Of a stretch of DNA of 64,000 bases, positions 45,837 through 64,000 are shown in pieces (position 1 is the first letter of the stretch; every line of letters begins with the position of its first letter). The stretch is taken from NCBI GenBank assembly GCA_963666055.2, contig CAXWPH010000013.1:1-64000 (forward strand), in the 5' to 3' direction. The DNA comes from Acidobacteriota bacterium (GTDB taxonomy: Bacteria; Acidobacteriota; UBA890; WLXD01). Made by a program: the position numbers and the translations under genes. The notes beneath the pieces were generated by a model that did no database searches, had not been told where the DNA came from, and saw only the letters and a program-made list of their open reading frames with translations.

Positions 45837-48560
45837 CTACCGGTCCGTCGGCACGAGCCGCTTCAGCTCCTCGAACCAGTTGGTGACCAGCGTCACATGG
45901 CCGCTGCCGGTCTGGCTCTGGCCGGCGTCGGGGAACATCACGAATTGCTGACCGTCGCCCGTCACGTCGTAGTCGGCATAACAACATCCACTGTTGATAG
46001 TCATTCCGTCTGGCCCGCCAAGAAAACTCCCCTCGAAAAGCTGCTCGGCTCTGCTGTAGGTGAAGGAATCACCTTCCGTCTCTACAGCAACCACCATGAT
46101 CCCTGTATCGGTGCGGTAGAACAGCTCCCGACCGTCGGCTGACCATCTGGGCTGGCCGCCACCGCTGCTGGAGAGCTGCCACTTGCCCGGTCCAGGAGGA
46201 TAGGGCCGGACATAGACTTCATTGCTTCCCGACTCGTAGGAGTCGTAAGCGATCCAGCGACCGTCCGGTGAGAAAGCCGACCACGCGTCGGTAGCATCGG
46301 TATTCACAAAGACCTCCGGCTCCCGATCCTCCTCAAGCGGCAACACCAAAATGTCCCAGCCGGTCGTCTGTGGGTGATTCTCGCCGTATACGAGAAACCT
46401 GCCATCCGCAGACCACGAATACAGCCACTGTCCCCTGTCGCTCTCTGTCAGCCGCTCCACAGTTCCCGATCCGTCGGCACGAGTCCGATAGATGTTCGTC
46501 GCTCCGTCGCGGTTCGACATGAATGCGAGAAACTGCCCGTCCGGTGACCAAACAGGTTCGTCGTCGTTCGCTTCATCAAACGTCAGCCTTGTCGGCACAC
46601 CCCGCTGGATGTCATAGATCCATACGTCAGCGTTTTCGTTGACCAAGGCGCGCACGGCTAGCCGTGTGCCGCCCGGCGACAACCGAGGAGAACTGTAGGA
46701 GCCAGGCTCATCCCACAGCGGTGTCGCGTTGCCCTGCCGGTCTACCCATGCGACGGGATATGCCTCCTGAAGAACGGCCTCGCTCAGATACGCCAGCATT
46801 CCTGTACTTGAGAAGCTGAACTGTGCGACAACCCCCCCCCAACCAAAGGTGGCAAGCCCCTGCACGATGGGTACCGGCTAGCCCTTCACCTCCAGCTCTC
46901 CCAGATCAAACGCGACAGCAAACAGGGTTCCCTGGTTGTGATAGACGAGATGCCCCGTAGGTACGTAACGTCCTTGTCCGCCTTGCTGCACGACCCGTCG
47001 TTGTCTCGTCTCTAGATCCAGCACTTCGATGGCAGACGAATACGCTCCTGGCTCCCCGGCCAAGGAGGAGAACAGCACCGACTTGCCGTCAGGCAGCACC
47101 TGCGGGTCGTTGTGCCAGAGTTCCCCTTGATCGAGTTGAGTCAATGGTTCCGGTTCTCCCCCGCTGGCGGACACGCGGGAGAGGCCGGAGAAGGAGCCGA
47201 TGATGATCGTGTCGTCCGCCCCCCAGCTTCCCGTCAGGGTGCCAGAACCGAAGGAACTGATAGTCAGGGGGGTGCCGCCTATGACGGGGACTATCTTCAG
47301 TTCCGCGCCGCTGAAAAAACCTATCCACTGGCCGTCCGGTGAGAAGAATGGTGCCAATACAGAGCCAGAGACCAAGCGAACGCCCGCTAGCTGATCGAGC
47401 GAGCGAACGTATAGCTCCCTTCGGTCTACTCCGATACCCACGATGTAGACGATCTGTGTGCCATCCGGCGATAGGACAACTCCCTCAGAAGCCAAGCTAA
47501 GATCATCATCGGCCAGCCTCACCTCCAGGTGCATGGGGGACGCAGGTGGCTGATGATTGTGATCTGTCAGGGTCCACGTCAAAAAGGTTGCCGCTGCGGC
47601 GATGGCGACGCCGAGACCGGCTGCCACAGGCATGGGGACGTAACGCCACCAAGACGGCTTTGCAGCCTCACCCGAGCCAACCGTCAGACCGAGGCCACCA
47701 TCTAGGTCGTTGATGACGTAGACGATGCCGATTCGCGCATCAGCGATGTCGTGAAGACGGTCACGCGGTTCCTTCGTAAGACACCGGTCGAGAAGTCGTC
47801 GTAATGCTCTCGGGGTAGCCGCCGGGAGCACTGCCCAGTCCGGCTCCGCCCTGAGAATCGCCGCCATGGTGTCGCTGACTGTCTTACCGTCGAAGGCGCG
47901 CTTGCCCACCAGCATCTCGTACAGCACGCAGCCGAACGACCAGATATCGCTACGCTTATCGACGGGCTCCCCCCGTGCCTGCTCCGGGCTCATGTAGGGA
48001 GCCGTGCCCATGATCACGCCGGTGCCTGTGGCGGCCATCATCGTGGGCGACTGGCTAAGGCCGGACGACGGCTCACTGCCTGCCGCTTCGTAGGCTTTGG
48101 CCAGCCCGAAGTCGAGCACCTTGACGGTGCCATCGGGTGCAACCTGGACGTTGGCGGGCTTCAAATCACGATGGATGACACCAGCCTCGTGAGCGGCTTC
48201 CAGTGCCAGGGCGATCCGTCGGGCGATCTCCAGTGCCTCATCTACGCCGATGCGGCCACTGGACTTGATGCGATCCGCGAGGTTGTCGCCCTCCACCAAC
48301 TCCATGGCGATGAACCGAACACCGTCCGATTCCTCGAAGCCGAAGATCGTGGCGATGTTGGGGTGGTTCAGTGAGGCGAGCAGCTTGGCTTCGCGCTCGA
48401 ACCGGGCTAGTCGGTTGGCGTCGCTAGCAAAGTCCTCCGGCAGCACCTTGATGGCGACATCACGATCCAGCGTCGTATCGCGTGCTCGATACACCTGCCC
48501 CATGCCGCCTTCACCGAGCGGGGCGAGGATCTCGTAGTGCCCGAGCGTCTTGCCGATCAT
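45837..48560 (-). pseudogene. Ser/Thr kinase-TM-beta-propeller, type B copy 2, one in-frame TAG at 46878-46880
   Basis: ORFs 46878-48560 and 45837-46865 share a frame (EVKG*PVPIVQG); ends [14 protein letters not shown]. Confidence 0.88.
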
Positions 48561-51259
48561 CAGGAGCCGCCCGTGGGCACTAGCCGGTTCAATTCCTCAA
48601 ACCAGTTGAGCACAACGTTGAGTCGTGTGCTGGGTGCCGCGCCCCCGGTCTCATCACTACCAGCGGGCACCGTCACGAGGAACCTCTGGCCATCGGCGGT
48701 GACATCGAAGTTGGACAGGGCCTGCATGACGATGTCCGAGACTTCGACAGGGTCGGATGCGGAAAACGACTCCAAATCCACTTCCGCAACGAGGATGCCT
48801 GGGCTGTTCCAGGATTCGTAGTAAATCTCCCTTCCATCCCGCGACCAGCGAGGCCACCAACCACCACGGGTACTCGTAGAGACCGGAAATGTCCGACCGC
48901 TCGATACCTCCCGCACGTACACCTCGAATTGCCCGGTCTCGTCGGAATGAAAGGCGAAGAAGCGACCGTCCGGCGAGAAACTGGCCCAAAACTCACTGGC
49001 GGCGGTATCGACGTGTATTTCCGTATCACCTGTATCGAGAGCCAGTATCCCCAGGTCGATCTGATTTTCGGGCCCGCTGCCAAACAGCAGCATCTCACCG
49101 TCGTCCGAGATCGATATCGGGTACACGTCAGCCTCTGTATCCAACACCAGCTCGGCGTCGAGACTCCGGTCAGCCCGGCGCTTGAAGATGTCGTTGTTGC
49201 CGCCCCGATCCGACCTGAAGAAGACCCACTGTCCATCGGGCGACCAAACGGGCACTTCGTTGTTGCCCTCCGTGTTCAGCAGCACCTGGCTGCCCCCTCG
49301 TTCGATCTCGTAGATCCAGATGTCCCAGTCCCCATCATTTCCCTGGATTTGGAGCGCGATGCGCTGGTCATCCGGCGAGAGGCCCAAGTACTGAGACCGA
49401 CGGGGCTCGAAGGGCAGCGGCTCGACTTGGCCGTCACGATCCACCCAGACGAGTAGGGAACTGCCCGAAGCGCCGCCATTCCTCATGTGATAGACGAGCA
49501 TCCCGGTCTCGGAGAAGTCGAACGAGACCCCGCCTTCAACGTCGGCGGCGAGGTTCTCGACCACGGGTATCGGCGAGCCGGTCGTCTCCAGGGTATCGAG
49601 GTCGAAGGGCACCGCGAACAACGCTCCGGCGTTTGAATACACCAGATGGCCCGTTGGCACGTATCGGCCGTAGGTGCCGCCCTGGTGCACGACCTGGCGC
49701 TCGCCGGTCTCGAGATCTACGACCTCGAGGTTGGCCCTGTCGAAACCTCCGGTCTCGGTCGAAGTGAATAGCACTGCCTTTCCGCCGGGTAAGAACTGGG
49801 GCCAGCGGTGGCTGCGCTCGCCCTCTGAAAGCTCGGTGAGCAGTCCCGGCTCACCTTCGACAGCCGACACGAGAAACAGGCCGCTGTTGACGTTGGGTGT
49901 GAAGACGATCGTATCGTCGGGCCCCCAATCCGCACCTCGGCTCCTGTCCACCGGCGCGATCGACTGCGGGGTGCCTCCAGTTACGGACGCCTTTTTCAGC
50001 TCCGAAATGGTGACGAACCCTACCCACTGCCCGTCGGGCGAGAAGAAGGGATGGTACGGCGCACCCAGGATGGTTGCCGAGGACGCGAGTGTCGTCGAGT
50101 CCTGCTGGTCGAGAGCGCGAAGGTACAGCGTGCTTCCACCGTCCGGGTCACCCTCGACGTAGGCAACGCGCCGTCCATCGGGCGATAGCACGACTGCGGA
50201 GCCGGGCCCACTCAGGATCGTGTCGACGAGGGGGTCGAGCTGCAGGCGGATGGTGTTTCCGGGCTCCGGTTGCATTGCCCACCAGGTGGCAAGAACCGCC
50301 AGAAGGGCGCTGGCCACAGCTATCGGGACGCCCAGCTTCCACGAGATGCCGCGTGTCGTTTCCACGGCGACAGGGGGTGTCGGAAGCGCCGCTCCTGACT
50401 CCACGTCTGTACCGAGCGCCTGTATGTCGACGACCAGATCGCCGGCTGTCTGGTAACGCTTGGCCGGCTCCTTCGCGAGTGCCTTGCGGACGATCCTCTG
50501 CAACTCTATCGGCAACGACCGGTCGATCTCCCCAATCGCTGGCGGCTCATCGGACAGGATGTGCGCCAAGGTCTCGTGGACGTTCTTCCCGCCGAATGCC
50601 TGCCTGCCCGTGACCATCTCATAGAGCAAACAGCCGAAGGCGAACAGGTCGGCTCGATGGTCGATCTTGTCGGAGCCTTCCACCTGCTCTGGGGCCATGT
50701 AGCCGGCGGTGCCCATCACCTGACCGGCCACCGTGCCCATCATCGTGGGTGATTGAGTTGCACCGCCCGGTGAGCCTGCCGCCACCTCGGTCAGCTTCGC
50801 CAGGCCGAAGTCCAGCACCTTGGCGTGGCCCTCCTTGGTGACGAAGATGTTCTCCGGCTTCAGATCCCGGTGGATGATGCCGGCGGCGTGAGCAGCAGCC
50901 AGCGCCTCGGCGATCTCGGTGGCTAATCCGAGCGCCTTCTTGAGCGGCAGCGCACCCTTGCCCAGCGGCTCCCGAAGTGTGTCTCCCTCCAGGTACTCCT
51001 GCACCATGAAGTGGGTGTCGCCTTCGGTGCCGATATCGTGAACGACCGCGATGTGCGGGTGGTTCAGCGCGGCGGCAGCGCGGGCCTCCTGCTCGAAGCG
51101 GGCCAGGCGCTCGGGGTCAGAGGCGAACTCGGCGGGCAGCACCTTGATGGCTACCTTGCGACCCAGGCGGGTGTCCTGGGCCAGGTACACCTCTCCCATG
51201 CCGCCCGCACCGAGCTGCTCGGTGATCTCGTAGGGGCCTAGTTTGGTGCCGGGTTCCAT
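48560..51259 (-). CDS. Hanks-type Ser/Thr kinase-TM-PD40 beta-propeller, type A copy 2
   Basis: All catalytic motifs, TM and SPDG repeats present; ends [15 protein letters not shown]. Confidence 0.93.
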
Positions 51260-52636: not shown

Positions 52637-52702
52637 TCAAAAGACTCCGTATGAACGAGAAACGGGGTTGAGTTTTCATCGGCCACGATCGGATCGTCGC
52701 GC

Positions 52703-53353
52703 CTATCCGAGGCCCGCAAGGGTTTGCCCTAAACGGATCACCGGCAAGATGAACACCCGTAAGGCGCCGAGCCATATCAGCGCGATCAGGATGAAGAAGC
52801 CGTATGGCTGTATGGAGCGGTAGAACCGCGCCACCGAGCCGGACAGCGTCGCCGAGAGGATCCACGAGCCGTCCAGCGGCGGAATCGGGATCATGTTGAA
52901 GGCGGCCAGCAGCAAATTGATCAGCAAGGAAGCCACCAGCAACTGCAGGACTGGCAGAAACACGCTTGCTGAGACAAGGCCGACGAGCACTTCCTGGTTG
53001 GCACGCATCAAACGTATCAAGAACACGCAAATCACCGCTAAGAGCACGTTGCTCAGCGGCCCCGCGGCGGCAATCCAGGCGTGATCTCGCTTCGGACGGA
53101 GCAGGTTGGCCGTATTGACCGGCACCGGCTTCGCAGCACCGAACGGTGGCAGCCCGGCGAAGATCATCATGGCCGGGAACAAGATCGTCATTATCGGATC
53201 GATATGGGCGAGCGGGTTCATGGTCACTCGGCCAAGCATCCGTGCCGTCGGGTCGCCGAGTCGGTCGGCCGACCAGGCGTGCGCCGACTCGTGAAACGAG
53301 ATCGCGAACAGCAGCGCGACGATCTGGGTGACGATGAGGCCGGCTCCCTCCAT
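52703..53353 (-). CDS. Site-2 protease family (M50) membrane metalloprotease
   Basis: HESAH, 'AAAGPLSN', 'NMIPIPPLDG'. Confidence 0.93.
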   Translation of the reverse strand: MEGAGLIVTQIVALLFAISFHESAHAWSADRLGDPTARMLGRVTMNPLAHIDPIMTILFPAMMIFAGLPPFGAAKPVPVNTANLLRPKRDHAWIAAAGPLSNVLLAVICVFLIRLMRANQEVLVGLVSASVFLPVLQLLVASLLINLLLAAFNMIPIPPLDGSWILSATLSGSVARFYRSIQPYGFFILIALIWLGALRVFILPVIRLGQTLAGLG

Positions 53354-53362
53354 AGTGTGATG

Positions 53363-53515
53363 CTATCCCGCCGGTCTGGTCGGTGCTAGAACGTCGCGGA
53401 TCGACCCGGCGAGGTTGATGCCGACGACCTCGGCCAATTCCGCCTCTGAGGCCCGGCGCACCCCGGCAAGGGACCCGAACCTACGAAGCAAAGCGCGTTG
53501 GCGCTTCGGTCCGAG
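53363..53515 (-). pseudogene. uvrC: UvrC C-terminal helix-hairpin-helix fragment
   Basis: [32 protein letters not shown]..., read in a frame not in the ORF track. Confidence 0.75.
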
Positions 53516-53760
53516 TCGAACCAGTTGATGACCAGCGTCACCGTGCCACTGCTGATCTGGCGTTGGTTAGTGTCAGGGAACATCACGAAACGCTGACCGT
53601 CGGCAGCAACGTCGGCGTCAGAGGCAAACTCGGCAGGCAGCACCTTGATGGCGACATCACGATCCAGCGTCGTATCGCGTGCTCGGTACACCTGCCCCAT
53701 GCCGCCTTCACCGAGCGGGGCGAGGATCTCGTAGTGGCCTAGTTTGGTGCCGGGTTCCAT
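53516..53760 (-). pseudogene. 'Empty' kinase gene: first ~48 codons joined in frame to the last ~33 codons
   Basis: MEPGTKLG...VLPAEFASD|[15 protein letters not shown]...VTLVINWFD. Confidence 0.9.
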
Positions 53761-54041
53761 GGCGCTCCCGAAGCATGGTGGCTGAGCGCATGAAGCGTAT
53801 CGTCAGGCCATGCGAAGGTCCACGGGGCGCGAAGCCACCCGCTATACGTCAGTCCGCACATCAGAGATGCTCCGTCGGATCCACGGCGGAGAGCGTCTGG
53901 GAGTTGTCCCGCAGCGAATCCCTTGAGGAGCCCAACGATCGGTGGTTGTATCCAGGCGTCCCGATACTGACCAAGCCAAGAGCCTGACTCGACCAGGGTT
54001 ATCTCGGAAATCCCGGGAGGTAGACCGTGGCTGGAGGATCG

Positions 54042-55841
54042 ATGACGGAAACCAGGCCCGGGCTGTGGATCCTTTTGCTGGCGAGCCTGAGCGTATCGGC
54101 TTGTCAGCCGTCAACGCAGGACGCGTCGCCAGGCGATGCTGCCAGCCCTGCCGATTTGGTGCTGCAGGGCGGTAAGTTCTTTACCGTCGACGAAGCCCAG
54201 GTCTGGGCTGAAGCCGTCGCGATCAAGGACGGCAGGTTCGTCTACGTAGGCGACAACGCTGGTGCACAGAGCTTCGTTGGCCCCGATACCGATCGCCATG
54301 ACCTCGGCGGCAAGCTGGCAATTCCCGGTCTAGTGGATTCCCATACACACCCAGGTCTGATGGGGCGGGAGACGGCCGGGTTTACCGCGGTCCCCGTGGG
54401 TGGTGGTCCCAGAGGGACGCTGCCCAGGGACGGGAACAAGGAGGAGATCCTCGCTGCGGTGGAGGCGTATGCCCAAGCCAACCTGGACCTTGCCTGGATC
54501 GAGATGGGTAGCTGGTCCGGGGATCTGAACGGCGTCGCGGGCCCACATAGGAGAGATTTGGATCGCGTCGTACCGGATCGACCAGTGATGTTAGGAAGCG
54601 TCCATAGCCTTTGGGTCAATTCCGTGGCGCTTGAGATGATGGGGGTCGACAGCACCACACCCGATCCGGTACCCGGTCTTGCATACTTCGTACGAGATGC
54701 CGATGGTGAGCCTACCGGCTGGATCAAGGAATATGCCATCTGGCCCTATGCGCAGCACCTTACTGACGTTGACCTGGAGTCCAACAAGGAGGGTATTGTC
54801 ACCTTCTTGGAGTACCTGTCACGCCACGGCGTTACCTCACTCTTTGACGCTGGCAACTTCAACTACCACGATCTCACGTACTCGTTCCTGGCTGAGCTAG
54901 AGGCGGCCGGTCGTCTGCCGGTTCGCTACGAGGGCAGCTATCACATCTTCTTGCCCGATCATGTGCCCGATGCGATCGATGAGCTACAGCGGCTGCGCCG
55001 CACCTACGGCAGCGAACGTCTACGGTTCAATACCATCATGATTCACTTGGACGGCACCAATGAGATTCGTACCGGCGCGGTGCTCGAGCCGTACAGCGAT
55101 GACCCGGGCAACCGGGGCACGACCCTGCTCGACACCGAGGAACTGCGTGACTTCATCGTGCAGCTTCACGAAGCCAGGATCGATCTGCACATGCACATCG
55201 TGGGCGACCGGGGCGTGCGCATCGCACTGGATGCGGTGGAAGCAGCGCGCAGGTCGGTCGACGGCGAACTGTATCCACGCGTCACCCTGTGTGAGCTGGA
55301 CATCATCGATACGGCTGACTACCCCCGTTTCAAACAGCTGGGTGTCATTGCCAACTACACGCCCCAGTGGCACGGCCTGGGAAACCGACTGCCGTTGACC
55401 GCCGGTACCCTTGGCCCCCGCTTCGAAAGAATGTTGCTGGTGCAACCGTTACTGGATGACGGCGCGGTGGTGGCCTTCTCCAGCGGCGTGACATCGTTCA
55501 GGGCAATGGAGCGGGCCAACCCTTACCTGGGGATGCAGATCGGCCACAACCGCCAATACCATCAACAAGGTGAGGCTGCGCCGATAAGGCTGCCGATGAG
55601 CGAACGCCTGGACCTGGAGGATCTGGTCCAGGGATATACCTTGAGCGGCGCCTATCAGTTGCGTATGGAGGAGCAGCTTGGCTCAATCGAGGTAGGCAAG
55701 CTCGCCGACCTGGTCGTGTTGGATCGCAACCTGTTCGAAATCGATCGCTACGAGATCCACGAGGTTCGACCCGAAGCGGTCATCATGGACGGCGAGATCA
55801 TCAGGGGAAGCTTAGACGGTGGCGCGGAGATGAGGCCATAG
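54042..55841 (+). CDS. Amidohydrolase 3 (YtcJ-like) lipoprotein
   Basis: Lipobox VSAC, 'PGLVDSHTHP', 'GSIEVGKLADLVVL'. Confidence 0.85.
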   Translation: MTETRPGLWILLLASLSVSACQPSTQDASPGDAASPADLVLQGGKFFTVDEAQVWAEAVAIKDGRFVYVGDNAGAQSFVGPDTDRHDLGGKLAIPGLVDSHTHPGLMGRETAGFTAVPVGGGPRGTLPRDGNKEEILAAVEAYAQANLDLAWIEMGSWSGDLNGVAGPHRRDLDRVVPDRPVMLGSVHSLWVNSVALEMMGVDSTTPDPVPGLAYFVRDADGEPTGWIKEYAIWPYAQHLTDVDLESNKEGIVTFLEYLSRHGVTSLFDAGNFNYHDLTYSFLAELEAAGRLPVRYEGSYHIFLPDHVPDAIDELQRLRRTYGSERLRFNTIMIHLDGTNEIRTGAVLEPYSDDPGNRGTTLLDTEELRDFIVQLHEARIDLHMHIVGDRGVRIALDAVEAARRSVDGELYPRVTLCELDIIDTADYPRFKQLGVIANYTPQWHGLGNRLPLTAGTLGPRFERMLLVQPLLDDGAVVAFSSGVTSFRAMERANPYLGMQIGHNRQYHQQGEAAPIRLPMSERLDLEDLVQGYTLSGAYQLRMEEQLGSIEVGKLADLVVLDRNLFEIDRYEIHEVRPEAVIMDGEIIRGSLDGGAEMRP

Positions 55842-55929
55842 CGGCAGCTGCGGCTTCGTGCGCGCGTGGGCACAGTTCGGAACGTCACACTAGTCGGGTG
55901 ACGCTCCTGCGCGACGATAGCCAACGGCG

Positions 55930-56070
55930 CTACGGGTCCGTCGGCACGAGCCGCTTCAGCTCGTCGAACCAGTTGGTGACCAGCGTCACCATGCCCGTCT
56001 GGGTGTCCTGGCCGGGGTCGGGGAACATCACGAACCGCTGACCGTCACCCGTCACGTCGTAGTCTGACGC
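55930..56070 (-). repeat. Orphan kinase 3' tail, long form ([18 protein letters not shown]...[14 protein letters not shown])
   Basis: Closely matches the 3' end of the type B gene at 45837. Confidence 0.9.
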
Positions 56071-56086
56071 GTTCAGACCGGCGACT

Positions 56087-57227
56087 TCACCTCGGCTCCC
56101 CCCCCCCCGCTTCGGCGGTCTCACGTTCCTGCGCCCGCGCCCCGAGAAGCACATTGGACAGCGCGTAGTTGGCTTCGTGGCAGGCGTATTCGTATACCAG
56201 ATCAGGCAGTGCCTTGAACGGCACCTGAGCAGTCCATGGCCTCGAGTAGAAGGCGGGATCGTCGATGGTGAACTCGTAGTTGATGGTGTGCTCATCGACG
56301 CGCGTGAGGCGTTCGGTCACCTTGAAATCTTCCGACCCGCCAGCAAAGTTAGTGTTTCCGTTGAGCTGCTGGCGCGGCAGATTTGTCGTCTCCACCACCA
56401 GCGTATCTCCTTCCCAACGGCCCCACGAGTCGCCCAACCACGGACGGATGTGCGCTGGCAGCGGCGTAGGCTCGCCCAACTTGATGATGCGAGCGTCGTG
56501 CACCATTTCGGTCATGACCATCACGTGATCGGCGGTCTGAACGATGGTGTAGTTGTTGTTGTAGAAGTAGTTGGGGATCATCGGCGGGCCGGCGTTGGAG
56601 CCGAACGAAAGTAAGCAGCGCAAGGCAAGCGAGAGATTCTCCGGATTGTCGTAATTCGCCAAACTGGGCCCGCTGTTGCGCCAGCTCGCTGCGCGCCTTT
56701 TCTCCCTCGGGGCTCAACGGTGGGATACGCCCGTCCGGCGGGTCCACCACCAACGAGCTGCGTGGCTCGCCGTTCCAGATCGCCACCCGATCGCCCGGGT
56801 CCAAGTAGAAGATGTTGTAGGCACCGGCTCCCCCGAAGGGCGGATCATAGAGCGCCGAGATCTTATCGTAGAGCGCCGAGGCCTCATTCTCGAGCGAATC
56901 GCCCCAGGGTACCCCCCCCACCGCCGGTGCCTCACGGTCGGGGTCGCTGTCCGCCAAGTGGGTATCGATGAACGTCGCTCGGTCGCCCTCGAGGGCAGCG
57001 ACTTGTTCCGGCGCCATCACACGCTCGTATCCCGGCGGACGCTCGATCCGCGTCATCGTCGCGTTGGTCCAGTTACCCTGCAGATCCGGATGGCCGTCGG
57101 GTGTCCGTGGCAGGACCCAGGCCTCGGTGGCGGCGTCCTGTGTCTGCGTCAGGGCCGGCAACGCCAGGCCAAGCGCCAGCACGGCACAAGCGAGGCCCGC
57201 TAGCGCGCTGCGAGTCGCGATCCTCAT
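56087..57227 (-). CDS. Secreted hypothetical protein ('PRTPDGHPDLQG' family); +1 frameshift near 56655
   Basis: Signal peptide; 'GDSWGRWEGDTLVVET', 'YEYACHE'. Confidence 0.75.
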
Positions 57228-57239
57228 CTGTTTCCCCTA

Positions 57240-57457
57240 TTAACCAATCGGGTTCTTGCGCAGATGCCCGTACAGTAGCTCCTCGACGAACTCCACGCAC
57301 TTGAACTGACCGAGGCGGGCGTCCGGGTCGATATTGCGGTACAACGGCAGGCGGATCGTCCACGGACGCGAGAACGTCTCGGGATCTTCGATAGTGGCCT
57401 CGTACCAGATGTCGTCGGGGCTCGCCATCTCGTACCGCTCGGTTACCGTCATCGCCG
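57240..57457 (-). pseudogene. C-terminal fragment of a paralogous secreted protein
   Basis: 'VTERY...YEATIEDPETFSRPWT' parallels the downstream gene; 5' end replaced by a kinase stub. Confidence 0.7.
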
Positions 57458-57626
57458 CACCTTGATGGCTACCTTGCGGCCCAGGCGCGTGTCCTGCGCC
57501 AGGTACACCTCGCCCATGCCGCCAGCGCCGAGCTGCTCGCTGATCTCGTAGGGGCCTAGTTTGGTGCCGGGGTCCATGGCGCTGCCGATGCGGGGTGGGT
57601 GAGCGCCTGAAGCCTATCGCCAGAGC
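57458..57626 (-). pseudogene. Kinase leader plus 40-codon 5' stub ([15 protein letters not shown]...VAIKV)
   Basis: Near-identical to type A kinase starts; ATG at 57577. Confidence 0.9.
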
Positions 57627-57900
57627 TTGCGAGCGTCCAAGGGAGAGGACAGGGGCCGGGCAGATCGGACCGCGCAGAAAGGGCGAGTAGCCCCAACGGT
57701 CACGATTTCGAACACCACGCGGAGTACGTGGCGCGGTTCGCGCAGGTTGGCTAGGAGCTACGGCTCACTCCAGGTCTCCCGGCCGCGCCTTGAGGCCGAA
57801 GTCGGCTTCAACGCGATCGTACCAGGCGTCGTCATCGAGGGCGCCCCAGTCGGCCCAGGCTGGCTAAGCGCCTGGCCGGCCTGCGGGCGAAGGCTGCCCA

Positions 57901-58117: not shown

Positions 58118-58486
58118 ATGAATACGCTCGAGATCATCGACGGCGACACCCTCGTCGTTCGAGACGAGGACGGGGCCGAGCTCGGCCGGATTCAACGACA
58201 CGAAGCGGTTACGGTGCGCGACGCTGACGGGAACGTGCTCACCAGGGCGGACGTCACTGCGTTCGCGCCCGGCCACCCCGCCCCACGCGGCGAGAATCGC
58301 GAGTCCGTAGCGATCACCCTGTGGCCACGGACCCGGCAAGCCGCCAACCTGATAGACTCGCTGCTCCAGAACAACGCCGTGCTGCTCATCCAGATCGAGA
58401 CGGCCGACGGGTTCGTGCTTGACCTGGGGGTACGCGCTGGGGGCCTGAGGGCTACGCGTGGCTGGTTCGCCGCTACCGTCTGGTGA
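58118..58486 (+). CDS. Hypothetical protein
   Basis: GAGGAG RBS; plausible codon usage. Confidence 0.55.
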   Translation: MNTLEIIDGDTLVVRDEDGAELGRIQRHEAVTVRDADGNVLTRADVTAFAPGHPAPRGENRESVAITLWPRTRQAANLIDSLLQNNAVLLIQIETADGFVLDLGVRAGGLRATRGWFAATVW

Positions 58487-58549
58487 GGGGCGCATGAGCG
58501 ACGAGGAGCGCATCGGCATCCAGTGGGGAAGTTTTTCTCTGCCACCATT

Positions 58550-58625
58550 AATCGCCCGGCTGCACGCTCTCACGTGGTGAGAGCCGACCTATTCCGCTAG
58601 GCTGAGCGAAGCCCTGGCGGCAGGC
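58550..58625 (+). repeat. Hairpin/promoter repeat, copy 1 of 3
   Basis: AATCGCCCGGC..CGCTCTCACGTGGTGAGAGCCGACCTATTCCGCTAGGCTGAGC. Confidence 0.9.
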
Positions 58626-58632
58626 GAATCCT

Positions 58633-59283
58633 ATGCAGAACCAGCTGACGGAAGTAGCGACGAGTGAGCTACAACGCCACGTAGAGCGCCTACACGACTG
58701 CGCAGCGACCTGCAGCGCCGCAGTTGAGGTCCATGATCGCTTCGGTAGCGAGACGTTATGGCATGGCGTCGTCCACGTCTTCGACCTCACATACCATCCC
58801 ACGGCTGACCTTTGCTACGCCTGGTCGTCACCCGTGGCCGGATCTCGGAAGCGGCGTTTCTACGCGGTTCTACACACCGAGCAGGTGGACTCGCCTGCGA
58901 AAGCGGTTCGGGCTGCGATTGTCAAAGACTTCAAGAGAGAGAGTCAGAACCCTTCCGGAATGGGCTTCGTCGACGGACGGCACTACTCGGCCTACGTGGT
59001 GGAGGTTCGTCGCCTCAAGCGGGTGGGCGACCTCGATGGCGCGAAGGAGCTTCTCCTGCGCCTGGTGGACGCCTCAGAGGCCGAGGCCGAGGGCGGAGGT
59101 TGGGGGGTTGATCCGTGGTACTGCGAGCAGCTGGCCATCATCTACCAGAAGAAGAAGCAGCCAGCCGACGAGCTCGCGATCCTCGAGCGGTACGAACGAC
59201 AAGCGAAGGCCCCGGGGATGGTTTCAGAGAGGCTGGCTAGGCGCCTAGCAGAGCTGCGCGCCAAGGCCCGAAAGAGCGAATGA
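58633..59283 (+). CDS. Two-domain hypothetical protein with C-terminal TPR-like domain
   Basis: C-terminal half near-identical to 59773-60153. Confidence 0.65.
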   Translation: MQNQLTEVATSELQRHVERLHDCAATCSAAVEVHDRFGSETLWHGVVHVFDLTYHPTADLCYAWSSPVAGSRKRRFYAVLHTEQVDSPAKAVRAAIVKDFKRESQNPSGMGFVDGRHYSAYVVEVRRLKRVGDLDGAKELLLRLVDASEAEAEGGGWGVDPWYCEQLAIIYQKKKQPADELAILERYERQAKAPGMVSERLARRLAELRAKARKSE

Positions 59284-59407
59284 CCCCGACCACTTACCGA
59301 ATCCTCTACCCGGGAGCACGAATAGCCACGTGACCGACGACGAAGGGGACCAAAAGCAAGAGCGCCCCCCGAACACGAACGACTCTTCTTGCGGTCGTTC
59401 GTCTGTG

Positions 59408-59548
59408 TCAGCGCTGACGCCGCGACCCGCCGCTGTGCCTTTGTACTCTTCGGTCGACGCTCCGCGGTGCCTTCGTGTTCTTCGGATCGCGCAAGACCCT
59501 GCCGGCTTTCGGCGCCACCTTCCTCGATGTTCTCTTGTTCTTCGCCAA
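59408..59548 (-). pseudogene. Tiny basic protein (MAKNKRTSRKVA...VAASALTQ) disrupted by internal duplication
   Basis: GGGAGG plus TTG start; the DPKxTKA.R.V unit occurs twice, out of frame. Confidence 0.5.
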
Positions 59549-59641
59549 CTTGCCTCCCGTCGTCTTGCATGCGCGGAATGCCCCTCCCGATTCTACCAGT
59601 CGGCTCCGAAACCCTTCGGAAGAGCGGTCGCGACGCCCCCC

Positions 59642-59703
59642 CCCTCGCAAATCGCCCGGCCGCTCTCCCGTGGTGAGAGCCGATCTATTCCGCTAGGCTG
59701 AGC
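59642..59703 (+). repeat. Hairpin/promoter repeat, copy 2 of 3
   Basis: CCCTCGCAAATCGCCCGGCCGCTCTCCCGTGGTGAGAGCCGATCTATTCCGCTAGGCTGAGC. Confidence 0.9.
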
Positions 59704-59772
59704 AGCCTTTACGGAGATCCGCCCCTTCCGGAACCCGCGACCGGCGATCTGTATGGCCAGGACTGATTGACC

Positions 59773-60153
59773 ATGACCCCGACCACCTACCGAGTTCGCC
59801 ACGGATCCACCAACAAGGAACTCGACGTCAAGCCGAGCTTCGTCGCTGGCGGGCACTACTCGGCCTACGCGGAGGTTCGTCACCTCAAGCGGATGGGCGA
59901 CCTCGATGGCGCCAAGGAGCTTCTCCTGCGCCTGGTGGACGCCACAGAGGGCGAGGCCGCCGCCGAGGGCGAAGGCTGCGGGGTTGATCCGTGGTACTAC
60001 GAGCAGCTTGCAATGATCTACCGGAAGAAGAAGCAGTCAGCCGATGAGCTCGCGATCCTCGAGCGGTACGAACGACAAGCGAAGGTCCCTGGGGCCGTTC
60101 CAGAGAGGCTGGCTAATCGCCTGGCCGGCCTGCGACCCAAGGCGGACGAGTGA
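59773..60153 (+). CDS. TPR-like hypothetical protein, paralog of the 58633-59283 C-terminus
   Basis: 'HYSAY.EVR.LKR.GDLDGAKELLLRLVDA...DPWY.EQLA.IY.KKKQ'. Confidence 0.65.
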   Translation: MTPTTYRVRHGSTNKELDVKPSFVAGGHYSAYAEVRHLKRMGDLDGAKELLLRLVDATEGEAAAEGEGCGVDPWYYEQLAMIYRKKKQSADELAILERYERQAKVPGAVPERLANRLAGLRPKADE

Positions 60154-60503
60154 GAGGCCGCAGCAGCGCCACCCCCCGCCCACTCGCCTACCCCCGCTGC
60201 CAGTTCGGCAACTACCTCGGCGAGTTGATCGACGCGCACCCTACCTCGAGGCCCACGCTAGCCAAGCGAATCGGCGTGTCTCCGGGGAACCTCAGCAACT
60301 ACCGCCACGGGCGCTACCTCCCGCCGGACCGCAAGGCTATCGGTGTGATCGCTCGAGTCCTGGCGCCGAGCAGGGCAAAGCAGGTGGAGATCCGAGCCGA
60401 GCTCACGCGCCGCTGTATCGCCGACCTGCTTGATGCGCACCTGCGCGCGGGCGGTGTGTCGCTGGATGAGGCGCGGTTGGCGATTCACGATCTGGGGGAG
60501 TGA
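60150..60503 (+). CDS. XRE-family HTH protein
   Basis: 'SRPTLAKRIGVSPGNLSNYRHGRYLP'. Confidence 0.75.
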   Translation: MRGRSSATPRPLAYPRCQFGNYLGELIDAHPTSRPTLAKRIGVSPGNLSNYRHGRYLPPDRKAIGVIARVLAPSRAKQVEIRAELTRRCIADLLDAHLRAGGVSLDEARLAIHDLGE

Positions 60504-60921
60504 GACCGTCATGACGCCACGTGCTGGGCGGGCGGTTCAGGATACGGCGGGGGCACGGAGCCGTAGGTAGAGGAACCCGGAGGCTACCGCCGCTCCTTCT
60601 TCCGCAGCTCCCACCACTCCCGGATGAACTTCACCAGCTTGCCATTGAGAATCGGCTGGTCGCGCGTCGTCCTTGTTTCGACCCGAAGCCCGACTAGCTG
60701 TGTTGTTTGGGCTCGCCGACGCCCGGTACAATAAGAAGCGGCCCGGGAGCTGCGAACTCCACGGGCCGCAAAACGAACTGCAGTAGTGGGACGGTACGTC
60801 CTCGCCGGCCGCCGGTCAATTATGGTCGGCTCCGCGCGTCCACTGGGGTGGGCTGCTGCGGTCCTCAATGCCTGTAAGTCCGAGCGGCCTTCGTGCTGCG
60901 GCAGGGCGAGGAGATGAAGTC

Positions 60922-61218
60922 ATGGGTGCTTTCGTGACCCAACAGCCGAGCGTATTCACACGCGACGGCATCGAAGCGCTGAGTCCAAACCAGCCCGGTG
61001 TGTACGGGCTATACCGCGGGGACCGATGGGTCTATGTCGGCCAGAGTGAAGACGTTCGGCGACGCTTGCTGGAGCATCTCGGCGGCGACAACTCCTGCAT
61101 CACAGGCAGCTGGCCGTCACACTTCGTAGCCGAACTGGTCCACGGTGGCCACGCTGCACGTGAGGCGCGAGAGCGCGTCCTAATCAACGAGTGCCAGCCG
61201 CTCTGCAACGTGGCGTAG
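60922..61218 (+). CDS. Stand-alone GIY-YIG nuclease domain protein
   Basis: 'PGVYGL...VYVGQSEDVRRRLLEH...E..LI....P..N'. Confidence 0.85.
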   Translation: MGAFVTQQPSVFTRDGIEALSPNQPGVYGLYRGDRWVYVGQSEDVRRRLLEHLGGDNSCITGSWPSHFVAELVHGGHAAREARERVLINECQPLCNVA

Positions 61219-61220
61219 CC

Positions 61221-61520
61221 CTAGTGGCTGCAGCCTGAACCTGTACCCTCCAGGCAGCCGGTGACTCGATCGAAGTAGTAGTCTCGGCCGCCTACGGTCA
61301 ACTGTGTGTAGCGTCGGCCGACGCGCACGTCTAGCTGCTGACCGGTGACCTGGTCGCGGTAACTGATCGGGCGGATGGCCCCCGGCGCACCGAGCCGATG
61401 CAGTGCCGCGCAGAACGCGTCGCGGACGCGGTCCCGAAACCAGTTGGTCCGCCCGCACTTCAGGGCAGCTGGTTGCGGCGGGTGAGGGTGGCTGAACGGT
61501 AACACCGTGGCGTCAGACAT
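61221..61520 (-). CDS. Hypothetical protein
   Basis: GGAGG RBS; convergent with the GIY-YIG gene. Confidence 0.5.
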   Translation of the reverse strand: MSDATVLPFSHPHPPQPAALKCGRTNWFRDRVRDAFCAALHRLGAPGAIRPISYRDQVTGQQLDVRVGRRYTQLTVGGRDYYFDRVTGCLEGTGSGCSH

Positions 61521-61643
61521 CGCGCCCTCCACGCTAGCGTTCACCCCCAACGCCGAGTCTACAACGAGCGAGCTCCTTGCGGAGCTTGAAGTAGATATTC
61601 GGATCCACGCCCAGCAGCGCCCCGAGCATCGCCAGCTTCAGCG

Positions 61644-61725
61644 CCCTCGCAAATCGCCCGGCTGCGCTCTCCCGTGGTGAGAGCCGATCTATTCCGCTAG
61701 GCTGAGCGAAGCCCGGGCGGCAGGC
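61644..61725 (+). repeat. Hairpin/promoter repeat, copy 3 of 3
   Basis: Shares the left extension with copy 2 and the right extension (GAAGCCC.GGCGGCAGGC) with copy 1. Confidence 0.9.
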
Positions 61726-61756
61726 TGAAGGGCATCCCAAACGAGCGAGGTGCGCG

Positions 61757-61867
61757 ATGGATCTTGAACAGCAAGTTGAGCGGCTGAAGCGAGACAACCG
61801 GAGGCTAAAGATTGCCCTCGGCGCGGTGGCGGCGTTGCTGGTGGCGGCTGTGCTGGTGGGCGTGTGA
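61757..61867 (+). CDS. 36-aa coiled-coil plus TM peptide (not in ORF track)
   Basis: GAGG RBS; MDLEQQVERLKRDNRRLKIALGAVAALLVAAVLVGV. Confidence 0.5.
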   Translation: MDLEQQVERLKRDNRRLKIALGAVAALLVAAVLVGV

Positions 61868-61918
61868 TGCTGCAGGAGGCTCTGACGCAGACCGTGCTGG
61901 AGTAGGCGGAGATAGTCA

Positions 61919-62221
61919 TCATCGCAGCATCCGCTTGAGATCGATCTGCTTTCCCAGCCGCTGAACCAATCCATGTGAAGCTTCGTTGAGCGACTGCTCC
62001 AAGAACTTCGGGCCGCTTACTGTTCCGCCTTCCACTTCCCTCAGCTCGTGGACGGCAATCGCGTAGTCGAGTCCTGCGCCTACGCCGATCTCGAGCGATA
62101 TCTCTTTGCCGTTCACTTTCGGCGAGCCGATCTGGTGGCTGTCGCGCAGTGCTCCGGTGTCGACTGGTGTTCTCTCCTTGGACGCCTCGACGACTCCCTC
62201 TGCCTCGACGCGTAGAGCGCT
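61919..62221 (-). pseudogene. HK97 gp10-like phage tail-completion protein, 5' end lost
   Basis: 'TPVDTGALRDS', 'YAIAVHE', 'KFLEQS'; upstream in-frame TAG. Confidence 0.65.
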
Positions 62222-62878
62222 CTAGACCTGATCGCACCGCCGACGGCCGGACGAGCCTGGACGTCGTTGACCGGCTACCCGCATCTCGTTCCCGCTCAAC
62301 CCCTGGACACCACGGCCGGGAAAGGCCATCGTGTGCCTGCTACGGGAATCCCCACCCCCAAAGCGCTCGGGCCGAAGCCGTTTCTGCTTCGGCCCGAACT
62401 GTTTCTGGTGATCCCACCAACTGCTCTCGAGCTCGGTACGCCTTCCGGTGCTCCTGGTGGTGGCCTCCTAGTGCCCGCCGCTGCCGCCCGGAGATGGCTC
62501 GGGAAAAACCACCCCCAAGGCGGCTGGCGACGTGGTCCCCGCGACCGCCGGCCTGGCCGGATGAACCTAACCGTGGCGCGGAGATGGTCGTTCATGGCCG
62601 TAGCTCCTGCCGCTCGGCGCGCTCGTCGGCCAACGCGGCCTGGAATGCGGCTTGTGAACTCGACTGAAACTCGGCGGGCCGTGGTGGTGTCACACGATGG
62701 GACCCTCGGCGCAGAACGCGAAGCTCGATTACCCCTAGAAACAAGGGCCTCAAGCGGCAAACCCGGCGGCGCCGAGGAGACCGCTGGGTGTGACAGAATC
62801 GGACACCACGGAGCCGGGCGCCGCTCCTCAGAAATGTGAAGTTTTGTGAGGTCCCTGCGCTGTGGCTACGGCCTCTGA

Positions 62879-63094
62879 AATGTCTACATTTGTCAACAGG
62901 CGGCAGGTCCCTCGAGAGGGCGCCTTCTTCGGGTCGACGGCTTCGAGGAAGATTGGACCCGCTTCCGCGGCTTCGGATTCGACTGGTTCATCGAGAACGA
63001 CGGCAACTACGTGAAGCTCCTCGAGGGCAAGTACCGGCCCGACGTGCGGCCATCCGTTGATGCTTCGAAGAAACTCCGAATCCCGAGGGGCTAG
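62879..63094 (+). pseudogene. C-terminus of a phage replication initiator (not in ORF track)
   Basis: 'FDWFIENDGNYVKLLEGKY' immediately upstream of DnaB. Confidence 0.6.
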
Positions 63095-63097
63095 CCG

Positions 63098-64000
63098 GTG
63101 GTCGAGCGCGCGCTCCCGAACGACACTTCCACTGAGCAGGCGATCCTCGCTGCCATCATCTTGAACCGAGAGGCGTGGCACGAGGCACAGGCTAAGCTGG
63201 AAGCCAACGACTTCTTTTCAGAGTCTCACCAGCTCGTATTCAAGGCGATGCAAGAGATCGGCGGCGTTCGTCGGGAGGCCATCGACACGGTGTCGATACT
63301 GGCCGAGCTGAAGCGGGTCGACAGCTTGGAACGCGCTGGCGGCCCAGCCTACATCTCGAACCTGATCGAGGGCTTCCCGATGCGAGCCAACGTGCCGCAG
63401 TTGGCCAGGGTCGTGCGCGAATATTCCCTGAGGCGCCGGCTCATCCGCGTTACCAACACAGCGTTCCACCGGGCGATGGACACGCCGGACTGATGCGGAG
63501 GAGGCCATCGAGGAGGCTATCGAGGATCTGCGGTTGTTGCTGTCGCGAGCTGCCGGTGCCAGGGAACCGGAGCTGCGGGGTTCAGCGCTCCTGCTCGCGA
63601 GCCTGGAGCGCGGCGATCGAGTGCCGCTGGGATGGGGCCGAAACTGGACCGGCGCATGCGTGGGGGCTGCCCAGGGGCACGGTGATAACCGTGGGGGCGA
63701 AGGGCGCGGTGGGCAAGACACCGTTCGCACTACAGACCGCGGAGCGGATCCTCATGAGCCGTCCAGCGGCGCAAGTGGCGTTCTTCAACCTGGAGATGCC
63801 CGAAGAGGAAATCGTCCGTCGGCAGATCATGGCCTTCTGTCGCGTGACCGACTCTGAGGCCGCTGACCTCGTGCGAGGCGGTGCTGACAGACCGGTGGAG
63901 ATGGGCCTGTCGCTTGCCGAGTACGACGCCATGATGGAGCGGTTCCATATGTTCCGCTCTCAACGGACGATCAGGCAGATCGAATCGGCTGTGGCGTCGG
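63098..64000 (+). pseudogene. dnaB: Phage DnaB-like replicative helicase, frameshifted, runs off window
   Basis: 'LPNDTSTEQAILAAII', then 'GAKGAVGKT' and 'FFNLEM' in shifted frames. Confidence 0.8.

Follow-up and report, generated by a model that had tools for sequence, protein, structure and literature searches.

How does a bacterial chromosome come to carry the two ends of a protein kinase gene with unrelated genes between them? Such an arrangement lies on the minus strand of the window, the 64,000-nt stretch analyzed here (G000:C13:1-64000), in a genome (G000) of 5.73 Mb that is assembled in 15 contigs and is 95.7% complete. The explanation that we favor, with a probability of about 0.6, is that a 1.4-kb piece of a foreign operon replaced the interior of a kinase gene or of a pair of such genes, and that leftover kinase ends act genome-wide as homology arms which move cargo.

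Kinase gene ends with foreign cargo between them

Behind a promoter-like leader, the cassette carries 40 kinase codons; cargo of 1.37 kb and the last 44 kinase codons follow. A sequence-only reading of the window had described a kinase 5' end, foreign genes, and a kinase 3' end, all co-oriented, and sequence comparison confirmed this order. All features given in this section lie on the minus strand. Upstream of the leader, a remnant of a kinase stop and its trailer, the intergenic unit of tandem kinases, was found at 57687..57766. The remnant matches trailers behind other kinase 3' ends and shows 96% identity over 55 nt to the one at C15:1030503. The conserved leader itself (57578..57642) is common to many kinase paralogues and contains promoter-like boxes, TTGGAC at 57640-57635 and TAGGCT at 57616-57611, with a spacing of 18 nt. 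Among 55 leaders picked by their -10-like motif, conservation dropped upstream of the -35-like box. A strict sigma-70 scan returned zero promoter sites and a single terminator-like site, the latter at chance level. The leader may act as a promoter.

The kinase 5' stub (57457..57577, with its ATG at 57577) comprises 40 codons of an A-type head. Its profile match covers Pkinase positions 1-31 (E=5e-4), and 38/40 residues are identical to the full kinase at 51259. From the letters alone, the stub had been seen to jump into the middle of a gene, and this held: the joint at 57461-57457 enters the gene of an uncharacterized 290-aa protein with a hydrophobic N-terminus, just before Met220. At this illegitimate joint, kinase and donor-like gene share a 5-nt microhomology (57457..57461) and are alike at 10/12 nt. 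When random kinase/donor joints were drawn 200,000 times, a 5-nt exact overlap occurred in 0.17% of draws, and 5 exact positions plus >=10/12 in 0.005%. The frame of the stub ends two codons past the joint, and its TGA overlaps the internal ATG of cargo gene 1.

Only 71/290 codons of gene 1 are retained, as a 3' fragment (57240..57461) that runs from Met220 at 57452 to codon 290, with the stop at 57240. Cargo gene 2 (56087..57227), which would encode a predicted secreted protein of 378 aa if intact, had been read as a second secreted-protein gene. It is a pseudogene, with a +1 frameshift caused by one extra A near 56656 relative to the metagenome locus L062. The 3' joint lies ~1 nt past the gene 2 stop, where donor homology ends. 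The following 21 nt (56065..56085), which have no donor match, resemble the variable loop of five other kinase copies and are likely the loop that precedes DYDV. Homology to intact tails identifies the next segment (55930..56064) as a kinase-propeller 3' stub, DYDV...VPTDP-stop, with an FVMFP-type tail. A tail of ~46 codons had been expected ~17 nt behind gene 2; the tail is there, but it has 44 codons plus the stop and begins 22 nt from the gene 2 stop. It is followed by a degraded trailer (55866..55929) ending in one short direct-repeat unit, of a kind found behind other tails, which we take to resemble integrase arm sites.

Source and condition of the cargo

The native context of the cargo pair, which the sequence-only reading had proposed to seek in relatives, was located. 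Two metagenome loci, L062 and L061, carry the operon in intact form, free of kinase pieces over the compared stretch, and match the cargo at 90.5% over 1385 nt and at 89.9%, respectively. Identity to the genome's own operon copy (C12:404482-405861) was 83%. An 8-row tree joined the window cargo to L062 (100/100) and the C12 copy to G002. Judged by these affinities, the cargo is foreign DNA. Copying from the genome's own C12 operon was ruled out, as the tree pairs the cargo with L062. None of the cargo proteins, including that of the intact L062 gene 1, belonged to a Pfam or NCBIfam family, and the Atlas neighbors of gene 2 are unnamed clusters. The next gene in the native operon is DUF6152.

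Public contigs from runs X1, X2, and X3 cross the frameshift site without gap or difference, and the frameshift is therefore not peculiar to this assembly. By the state of its reading frames, the window cassette is dead or decaying, with no intact cargo gene.

Support for the two junctions

Read support had been suggested as a check at ~56070 and ~57457, and it was obtained for the first position only. The 3' junction is bridged by contigs over 55960-56191 in X2 and X3, which come from two studies; the best runs used for this comparison may include the source sample. Over 57307-57457, no contig cover was found in 4/4 runs, a hole that alone proves nothing, and the 5' junction is thus unconfirmed by reads. 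JGI contigs contained zero exact matches to the 5' junction. The depth of the cargo equals that of its flanks, and zero differences were observed over 56163-57306 in public contigs. The window cassette was present in 0/30 relatives, and 0/4 congeners span the 5' joint. An empty allele was not found among the relatives examined, since they are not syntenic at this locus.

Could the 5' junction be an assembly chimera? The uncovered stretch in 4/4 runs would fit, as would several near-identical duplications of 2.5 to 13 kb in the assembly. Against it, the joint sits on a microhomology with donor-like sequence from outside the assembly, the cargo has the depth of its flanks, the 3' joint is bridged, and independently assembled relatives have the same architecture. 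We consider a chimera very improbable. One of the duplications, a 13-kb inverted copy with 99.9% identity (C8:29538-42541 versus 53958-66961), is possibly an assembly artifact.

One kinase gene or a tandem pair

The parent type is a ~900-aa protein made up of Pkinase, a membrane segment, and a PD40 propeller, as encoded at 51259-48560 in the window. An intact parent paralogue is a Hanks-type Ser/Thr kinase with a PD40/TolB-like propeller and a hydrophobic segment at residue 309. The sequence-only reading assumed that ~2.4 kb of one such gene had been replaced. Replacement by foreign DNA finds support in the donor-like native operon, the microhomology at the 5' joint, and a source other than the genome's own paralogue, whereas the loss of ~2.4 kb from one gene is doubtful.

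The head and tail of the cassette best match different kinase subtypes. FVM(F/L)P tails occur in 4/44 full-length copies, and each of these four has a B-type head and is immediately preceded by another kinase. For this reason, replacement of a ~5-kb tandem pair, or two events, appears more likely than replacement within one gene. A related tail (0.82) is found on one A-headed copy, so that a single mosaic parent with an A head and such a tail is possible, if less likely. An independent origin of the two stubs had been named as a finding that would speak against a single cassette: the subtypes do differ, which two events would explain, but the tandem pair would fit too, and the mosaic parent may do so as well. 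A 5.4-kb tandem pair of an A-type and a B-type kinase with a TGATG overlap is present in the window at 45837-51259 (minus strand); its second kinase has a frameshift near 46878.

Kinase ends throughout the genome

The cassette had been presented as a single structure, a view that missed dozens of such structures in G000. The genome contains 28 full-length kinase-propeller copies, 17 with an intact frame and 11 broken. In addition, we found 52 5' stubs (<250 aa) and 20 longer 5' arms, and 43 3' stubs and 9 longer 3' arms. Head-to-tail fusions numbered 2, and a further 18 pieces were assigned to the kinase interior. Short kinase ends amount to ~95 and kinase pieces altogether to roughly 150, in counts from which the duplicated C8 arm (above 50 kb) and 60 weak "other" kinase/propeller matches were dropped and which are perhaps inflated by duplicated segments. 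Median stub lengths were 108 nt (5') and 60 nt (3'), the latter being lower bounds because the loop upstream is variable. Breakpoints are scattered, with 45/52 of those in 5' stubs falling at 39 to 250 nt.

In a fragment control with one nucleotide method, kinases yielded 79 5' and 54 3' short fragments, compared with <=6 of either kind in 21/22 other families and 18 in the remaining one; detection favors tips in these counts, since as the best-conserved parts they are the easiest fragments to detect. Tail motifs numbered 79 in G000 versus 33, 21, 14, and 4 in congeners. The stub pattern is not confined to G000. In regions picked by tip matches, which do not give whole-genome counts, we observed 20 5' stubs, 12 3' stubs, and 8 full genes in G002 (13 regions), 2, 5, and 6, respectively, in G004 (7 regions), and 7 of each in G012, a member of another family (18 regions). 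Arms of intermediate length are numerous in G012 and G007, and a 417-aa arm in G000 corresponds to 43 aa at the orthologous G002 locus.

Stub cargo is composed mostly of whole accessory genes, including those for sulfatases, peptidases, hydrolases, oxidoreductases, and TonB receptors. A 5' stub was followed by a 3' stub in 16 cases versus 9.6 or 11.0 after shuffling (p=0.012 and 0.027), a modest enrichment, next to 13 N>N and 9 C>C pairs. At 53386-53760 in the window (minus strand), a 46-codon kinase head runs straight into a tail fragment, and cargo is absent. The adjacent M50 peptidase gene (52637-53514) is 99.3% identical to C12:45562-46439, and the homology ends at the tail fragment.

These counts bear on a reading in which the stubs are neutral scars: a large, fast-dying family resides in plastic islands and is broken by insertions and deletions, its arms wear down, its tips survive beside functional neighbors and are easy to detect, they have no role in moving cargo, and the two stubs of the window are independent. 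Such decay would account for the 11/28 broken full-length copies, the nested erosion from 417 to 43 aa, the intermediate-length arms common in G012 and G007, the frequent N>N and C>C neighbors, and the differing subtypes of the window head and tail. It does not account for the rarity of plain head-to-tail fusions (2, versus 16 cargo-separated pairs). The evidence on tip exchange given below also bears on it, and overall we regard it as rather unlikely.

The stubs allow a further question to be addressed, namely whether the structure has been kept as the kinase leader expresses the cargo, as transcription of the cargo from the kinase promoter had been proposed for the window. The window leader is intact and promoter-like, the stop of the stub overlaps the ATG of the gene 1 fragment, and in-frame fusion to a cargo open reading frame (ORF) is found for 5/48 5' stubs, several of them, two sulfatases included, just before a signal-peptide-like stretch. 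For the window copy the proposal found no support, because only the 3' part of gene 1 remains and gene 2 carries a frameshift. Nor was there an excess of co-oriented cargo, at 31/48 (genes that follow 5' stubs; p=0.54) and 23/40 versus a background of 69%. Retention by promoter capture is improbable. In the sulfatase genes L086:4308-6836 and L087:881-3400 (G000 C10:10836 and C15:414881), 23 to 24 kinase codons form the N-terminus and run in frame into a lipoprotein-signal-like stretch. The junction is common to three copies with different head subtypes, and the kinase-codon N-terminus is possibly a domesticated leader.

Proposed exchange through the conserved tips

Tips of the kinase genes are homogenized at silent sites. 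Across 14 intact copies, identity at 4-fold sites was 0.63 for codons 1-25 and 0.67 for the last 24 codons, compared with 0.39 to 0.49 over codons 51-850. Codons 101-150, at an amino acid identity similar to that of the tips, reached 0.49. Full-length kinases are mosaics as well; C13_25338 is 89% identical to C6_267918 in the kinase domain, and its propeller is at best 50% identical to any copy.

A cassette with both a 5' stub and a 3' stub around a 181-aa gene occurs at three loci, C6:270623, C14:405833, and G002 (L039). Identity is 93 to 99% inside and falls to ~36 to 45% beyond kinase sequence. With 89 stubs queried, 17 alignments spanned a stub-cargo junction at another locus; they represent 10 distinct junctions, some of them reciprocal. 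Homology ended at the tip in 15/17 and continued into an upstream tandem kinase in 2/17. Only 14/88 stub-cargo junctions recurred elsewhere in the sequences compared. In 10/12 tips tested, the tip of the copy with the shared junction was more distant than unrelated tips, although some low identities are due to truncated partners or 20 to 70 nt of included flank. For the C6/C14 cassette, tip identity was 0.88 versus 0.98 for the cargo. Decay of a dying family does not predict swapped tips under shared junctions, the presence at three loci of one two-sided cassette with kinase sequence as its limits, or homogenization of tips at silent sites.

Synteny with relatives ended at 28/29 gene sides adjoining a kinase piece versus 89/129 elsewhere (Fisher p=0.002; the cases are not independent). 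Block ends fell in tip zones in 18/168 cases versus 8.7 expected, and most module boundaries lie elsewhere. General island shuffling therefore dominates, and that synteny breaks mostly away from tips is a point in favor of neutral scars. Of 14 junctions with a donor available, three had a donor overlap of 0 to 2 nt and two had overlaps of 9 and 12 nt, while the value was negative for the other nine. No general microhomology signature was seen across these junctions. Both joints of the window cassette are non-homologous. Among other modules, one-sided anchor patterns occur, as in C14:334011 versus L029. The amidohydrolase gene at 54027-55841 of the window (plus strand) behaves as a gene-sized module, with copies of 86 to 96% identity in G000-G004. 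Its boundaries differ by tens of bases, and it adjoins kinase pieces in G000, G003, and G004.

Under the favored reading, in which kinase ends act as homology arms, incoming DNA would have entered a kinase gene through joining at chance microhomologies or through end-joining by Ku. Long arms would then erode to short tips, and a module carrying a tip could recombine into any of the roughly 150 kinase pieces. Two routes may be envisaged, one tip with a new illegitimate joint (homology-facilitated illegitimate recombination, HFIR) or both tips (cassette swap). Weighing against the scheme are the many module boundaries away from tips, the few junctions that recur, the modest pairing of 5' with 3' stubs, the microhomology results at other junctions, the ease with which tips are detected, and the absence of the window cassette from the other genomes searched. 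G000 encodes ComEC, DprA, and Ku; the route of DNA uptake, the dependence on RecA, and an advantage of keeping a tip are presumed in this scheme.

A broader proposal, which we offer tentatively and hold to be possible rather than probable, is that the two kinase ends form a recombinase-free cassette system in these Acidobacteriota. The ~150 promoter-bearing heads and tails would be standing landing pads, and modules that keep a tip would be passed on more readily and would so travel between islands and genomes. The head would give some cargo its promoter and its start of translation, and propeller domains would be swapped between intact kinases by way of these arms.

Relation to known recombination systems

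In HFIR of naturally competent bacteria, a conserved stretch anchors incoming DNA, whose opposite end is joined by means of a short microhomology; resident DNA is replaced, and later spread occurs by ordinary homologous recombination (PMC5361080, PMC2884548, PMC6382021). HFIR has mostly been demonstrated as a rare laboratory event or invoked for single loci (PMC5361080, PMC2884548), and it has been proposed for displacement of Vibrio cholerae T6SS effectors and for Rhs arrays (PMC5361080). The window cassette resembles HFIR products in the 5-nt microhomology of its 5' joint, where a short, GC-rich one is expected, and in having foreign DNA in place of resident DNA. Its structure may reflect an HFIR-like process of illegitimate capture followed by homologous spread through tips. 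Unlike in the Vibrio T6SS case, the anchoring role would fall to the two ends of a single dispersed signaling-gene family with ~150 pieces per genome. The cargo here consists of unrelated genes, whereas effector-immunity pairs at few loci are involved there (PMC5361080).

A second precedent is lpl of Staphylococcus aureus, where crossovers take place in conserved segments of tandem paralogues within a genomic island, so that mosaic genes arise (PMC2568036). The kinases are alike in that their conserved segments are homogenized and their paralogues mosaic. They differ in that the lpl segment is central and only halves of paralogues are shuffled (PMC2568036), while the kinase segments are terminal and foreign genes replace the interior. 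Orphan modules of Rhs/CDI are strings of gene stubs beside variable modules, left by successive displacement (PMC5361080). There, the stub is followed by a C-terminal toxin that is variable and belongs to the stub's own family (PMC5361080); kinase stubs are both 5' and 3', and their cargo is mostly unfused.

No description of the kinase-end stub pattern in Acidobacteriota was found in the literature searched, which covered few subscription papers. If the favored reading is true, an ordinary signaling-gene family offers unrelated accessory genes places to dock across the whole genome, and no dedicated recombinase takes part. This would help explain the shuffling of gene-sized modules in flexible islands of uncultured Acidobacteriota, and HFIR could be examined at dozens of naturally occurring junctions. 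When such genomes are annotated, false short kinases will be numerous, as will chimeric N-termini. The significance rests on the genome-wide pattern and not on the dead window copy.

Integrases, direct repeats, and the neighboring element

In integrons, a repeated element separates the gene-sized cargo units of an array, and a promoter-like sequence often lies in front; the kinase-end pattern is similar in placing gene-sized cargo between repeated elements with a promoter-like leader. Unlike in an integron, the kinase joints have no fixed crossover base, and cargo lies in either orientation, the 31/48 co-oriented cases being at background. Pack-type elements and Helitron gene capture keep the ends and replace the interior with captured gene pieces. 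The kinase ends differ from those of Pack-type elements in being protein-coding and free of terminal repeats, and the parent is a kinase rather than a transposase.

We considered whether the tips are recognition sites of a recombinase or transposase within a dedicated mobile element or integron-like system, with cargo captured as in non-autonomous elements. G000 has 29 tyrosine-integrase (PF00589) matches, and 17/95 stubs lie within 10 kb of an integrase versus 8.7% of the genome, an ~2-fold difference. Trailers often continue into short direct repeats, and the island of the window adjoins an integrase at tRNA-Sec. On the other hand, breakpoints are scattered, neither terminal inverted repeats nor a target duplication, as expected of a MITE or Pack-type element, could be made out convincingly around the window cassette, and no reverse transcriptase was found in the 95.7% complete genome. 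A dedicated system is highly unlikely, and the tyrosine integrases mark islands without fixing the joints. Site-specific recombination as such was ruled out by the scattered breakpoints. An origin as a retro-copying or DGR product was likewise rejected, with 0 PF00078 matches in a genome of 95.7% completeness.

Soon after many kinase-tail trailers (for example, C14:23483, C7:12919, L015, and L016), direct repeats of 8 to 10 nt with a spacing of ~11 nt were observed, which may resemble the arm sites of tyrosine integrases. No tRNA was detected in the 64-kb window. A phage-satellite-like element beside tRNA-Sec occupies 58156-64000 of the window and continues on C13 to 66188; it encodes a DnaB-like N-terminal domain and an integrase (C13:64909-66042). 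Over 8,034 nt it is 99.9% identical to the start of contig C6, which therefore indicates a contig overlap or a strain variant. The ORF at 58633-59283 (plus strand) matched no Pfam or NCBIfam family. It is related to the ORF at 59767-60153 (plus strand), and the two share the segment DLDGAKELLLRLVDA...VDPWY.
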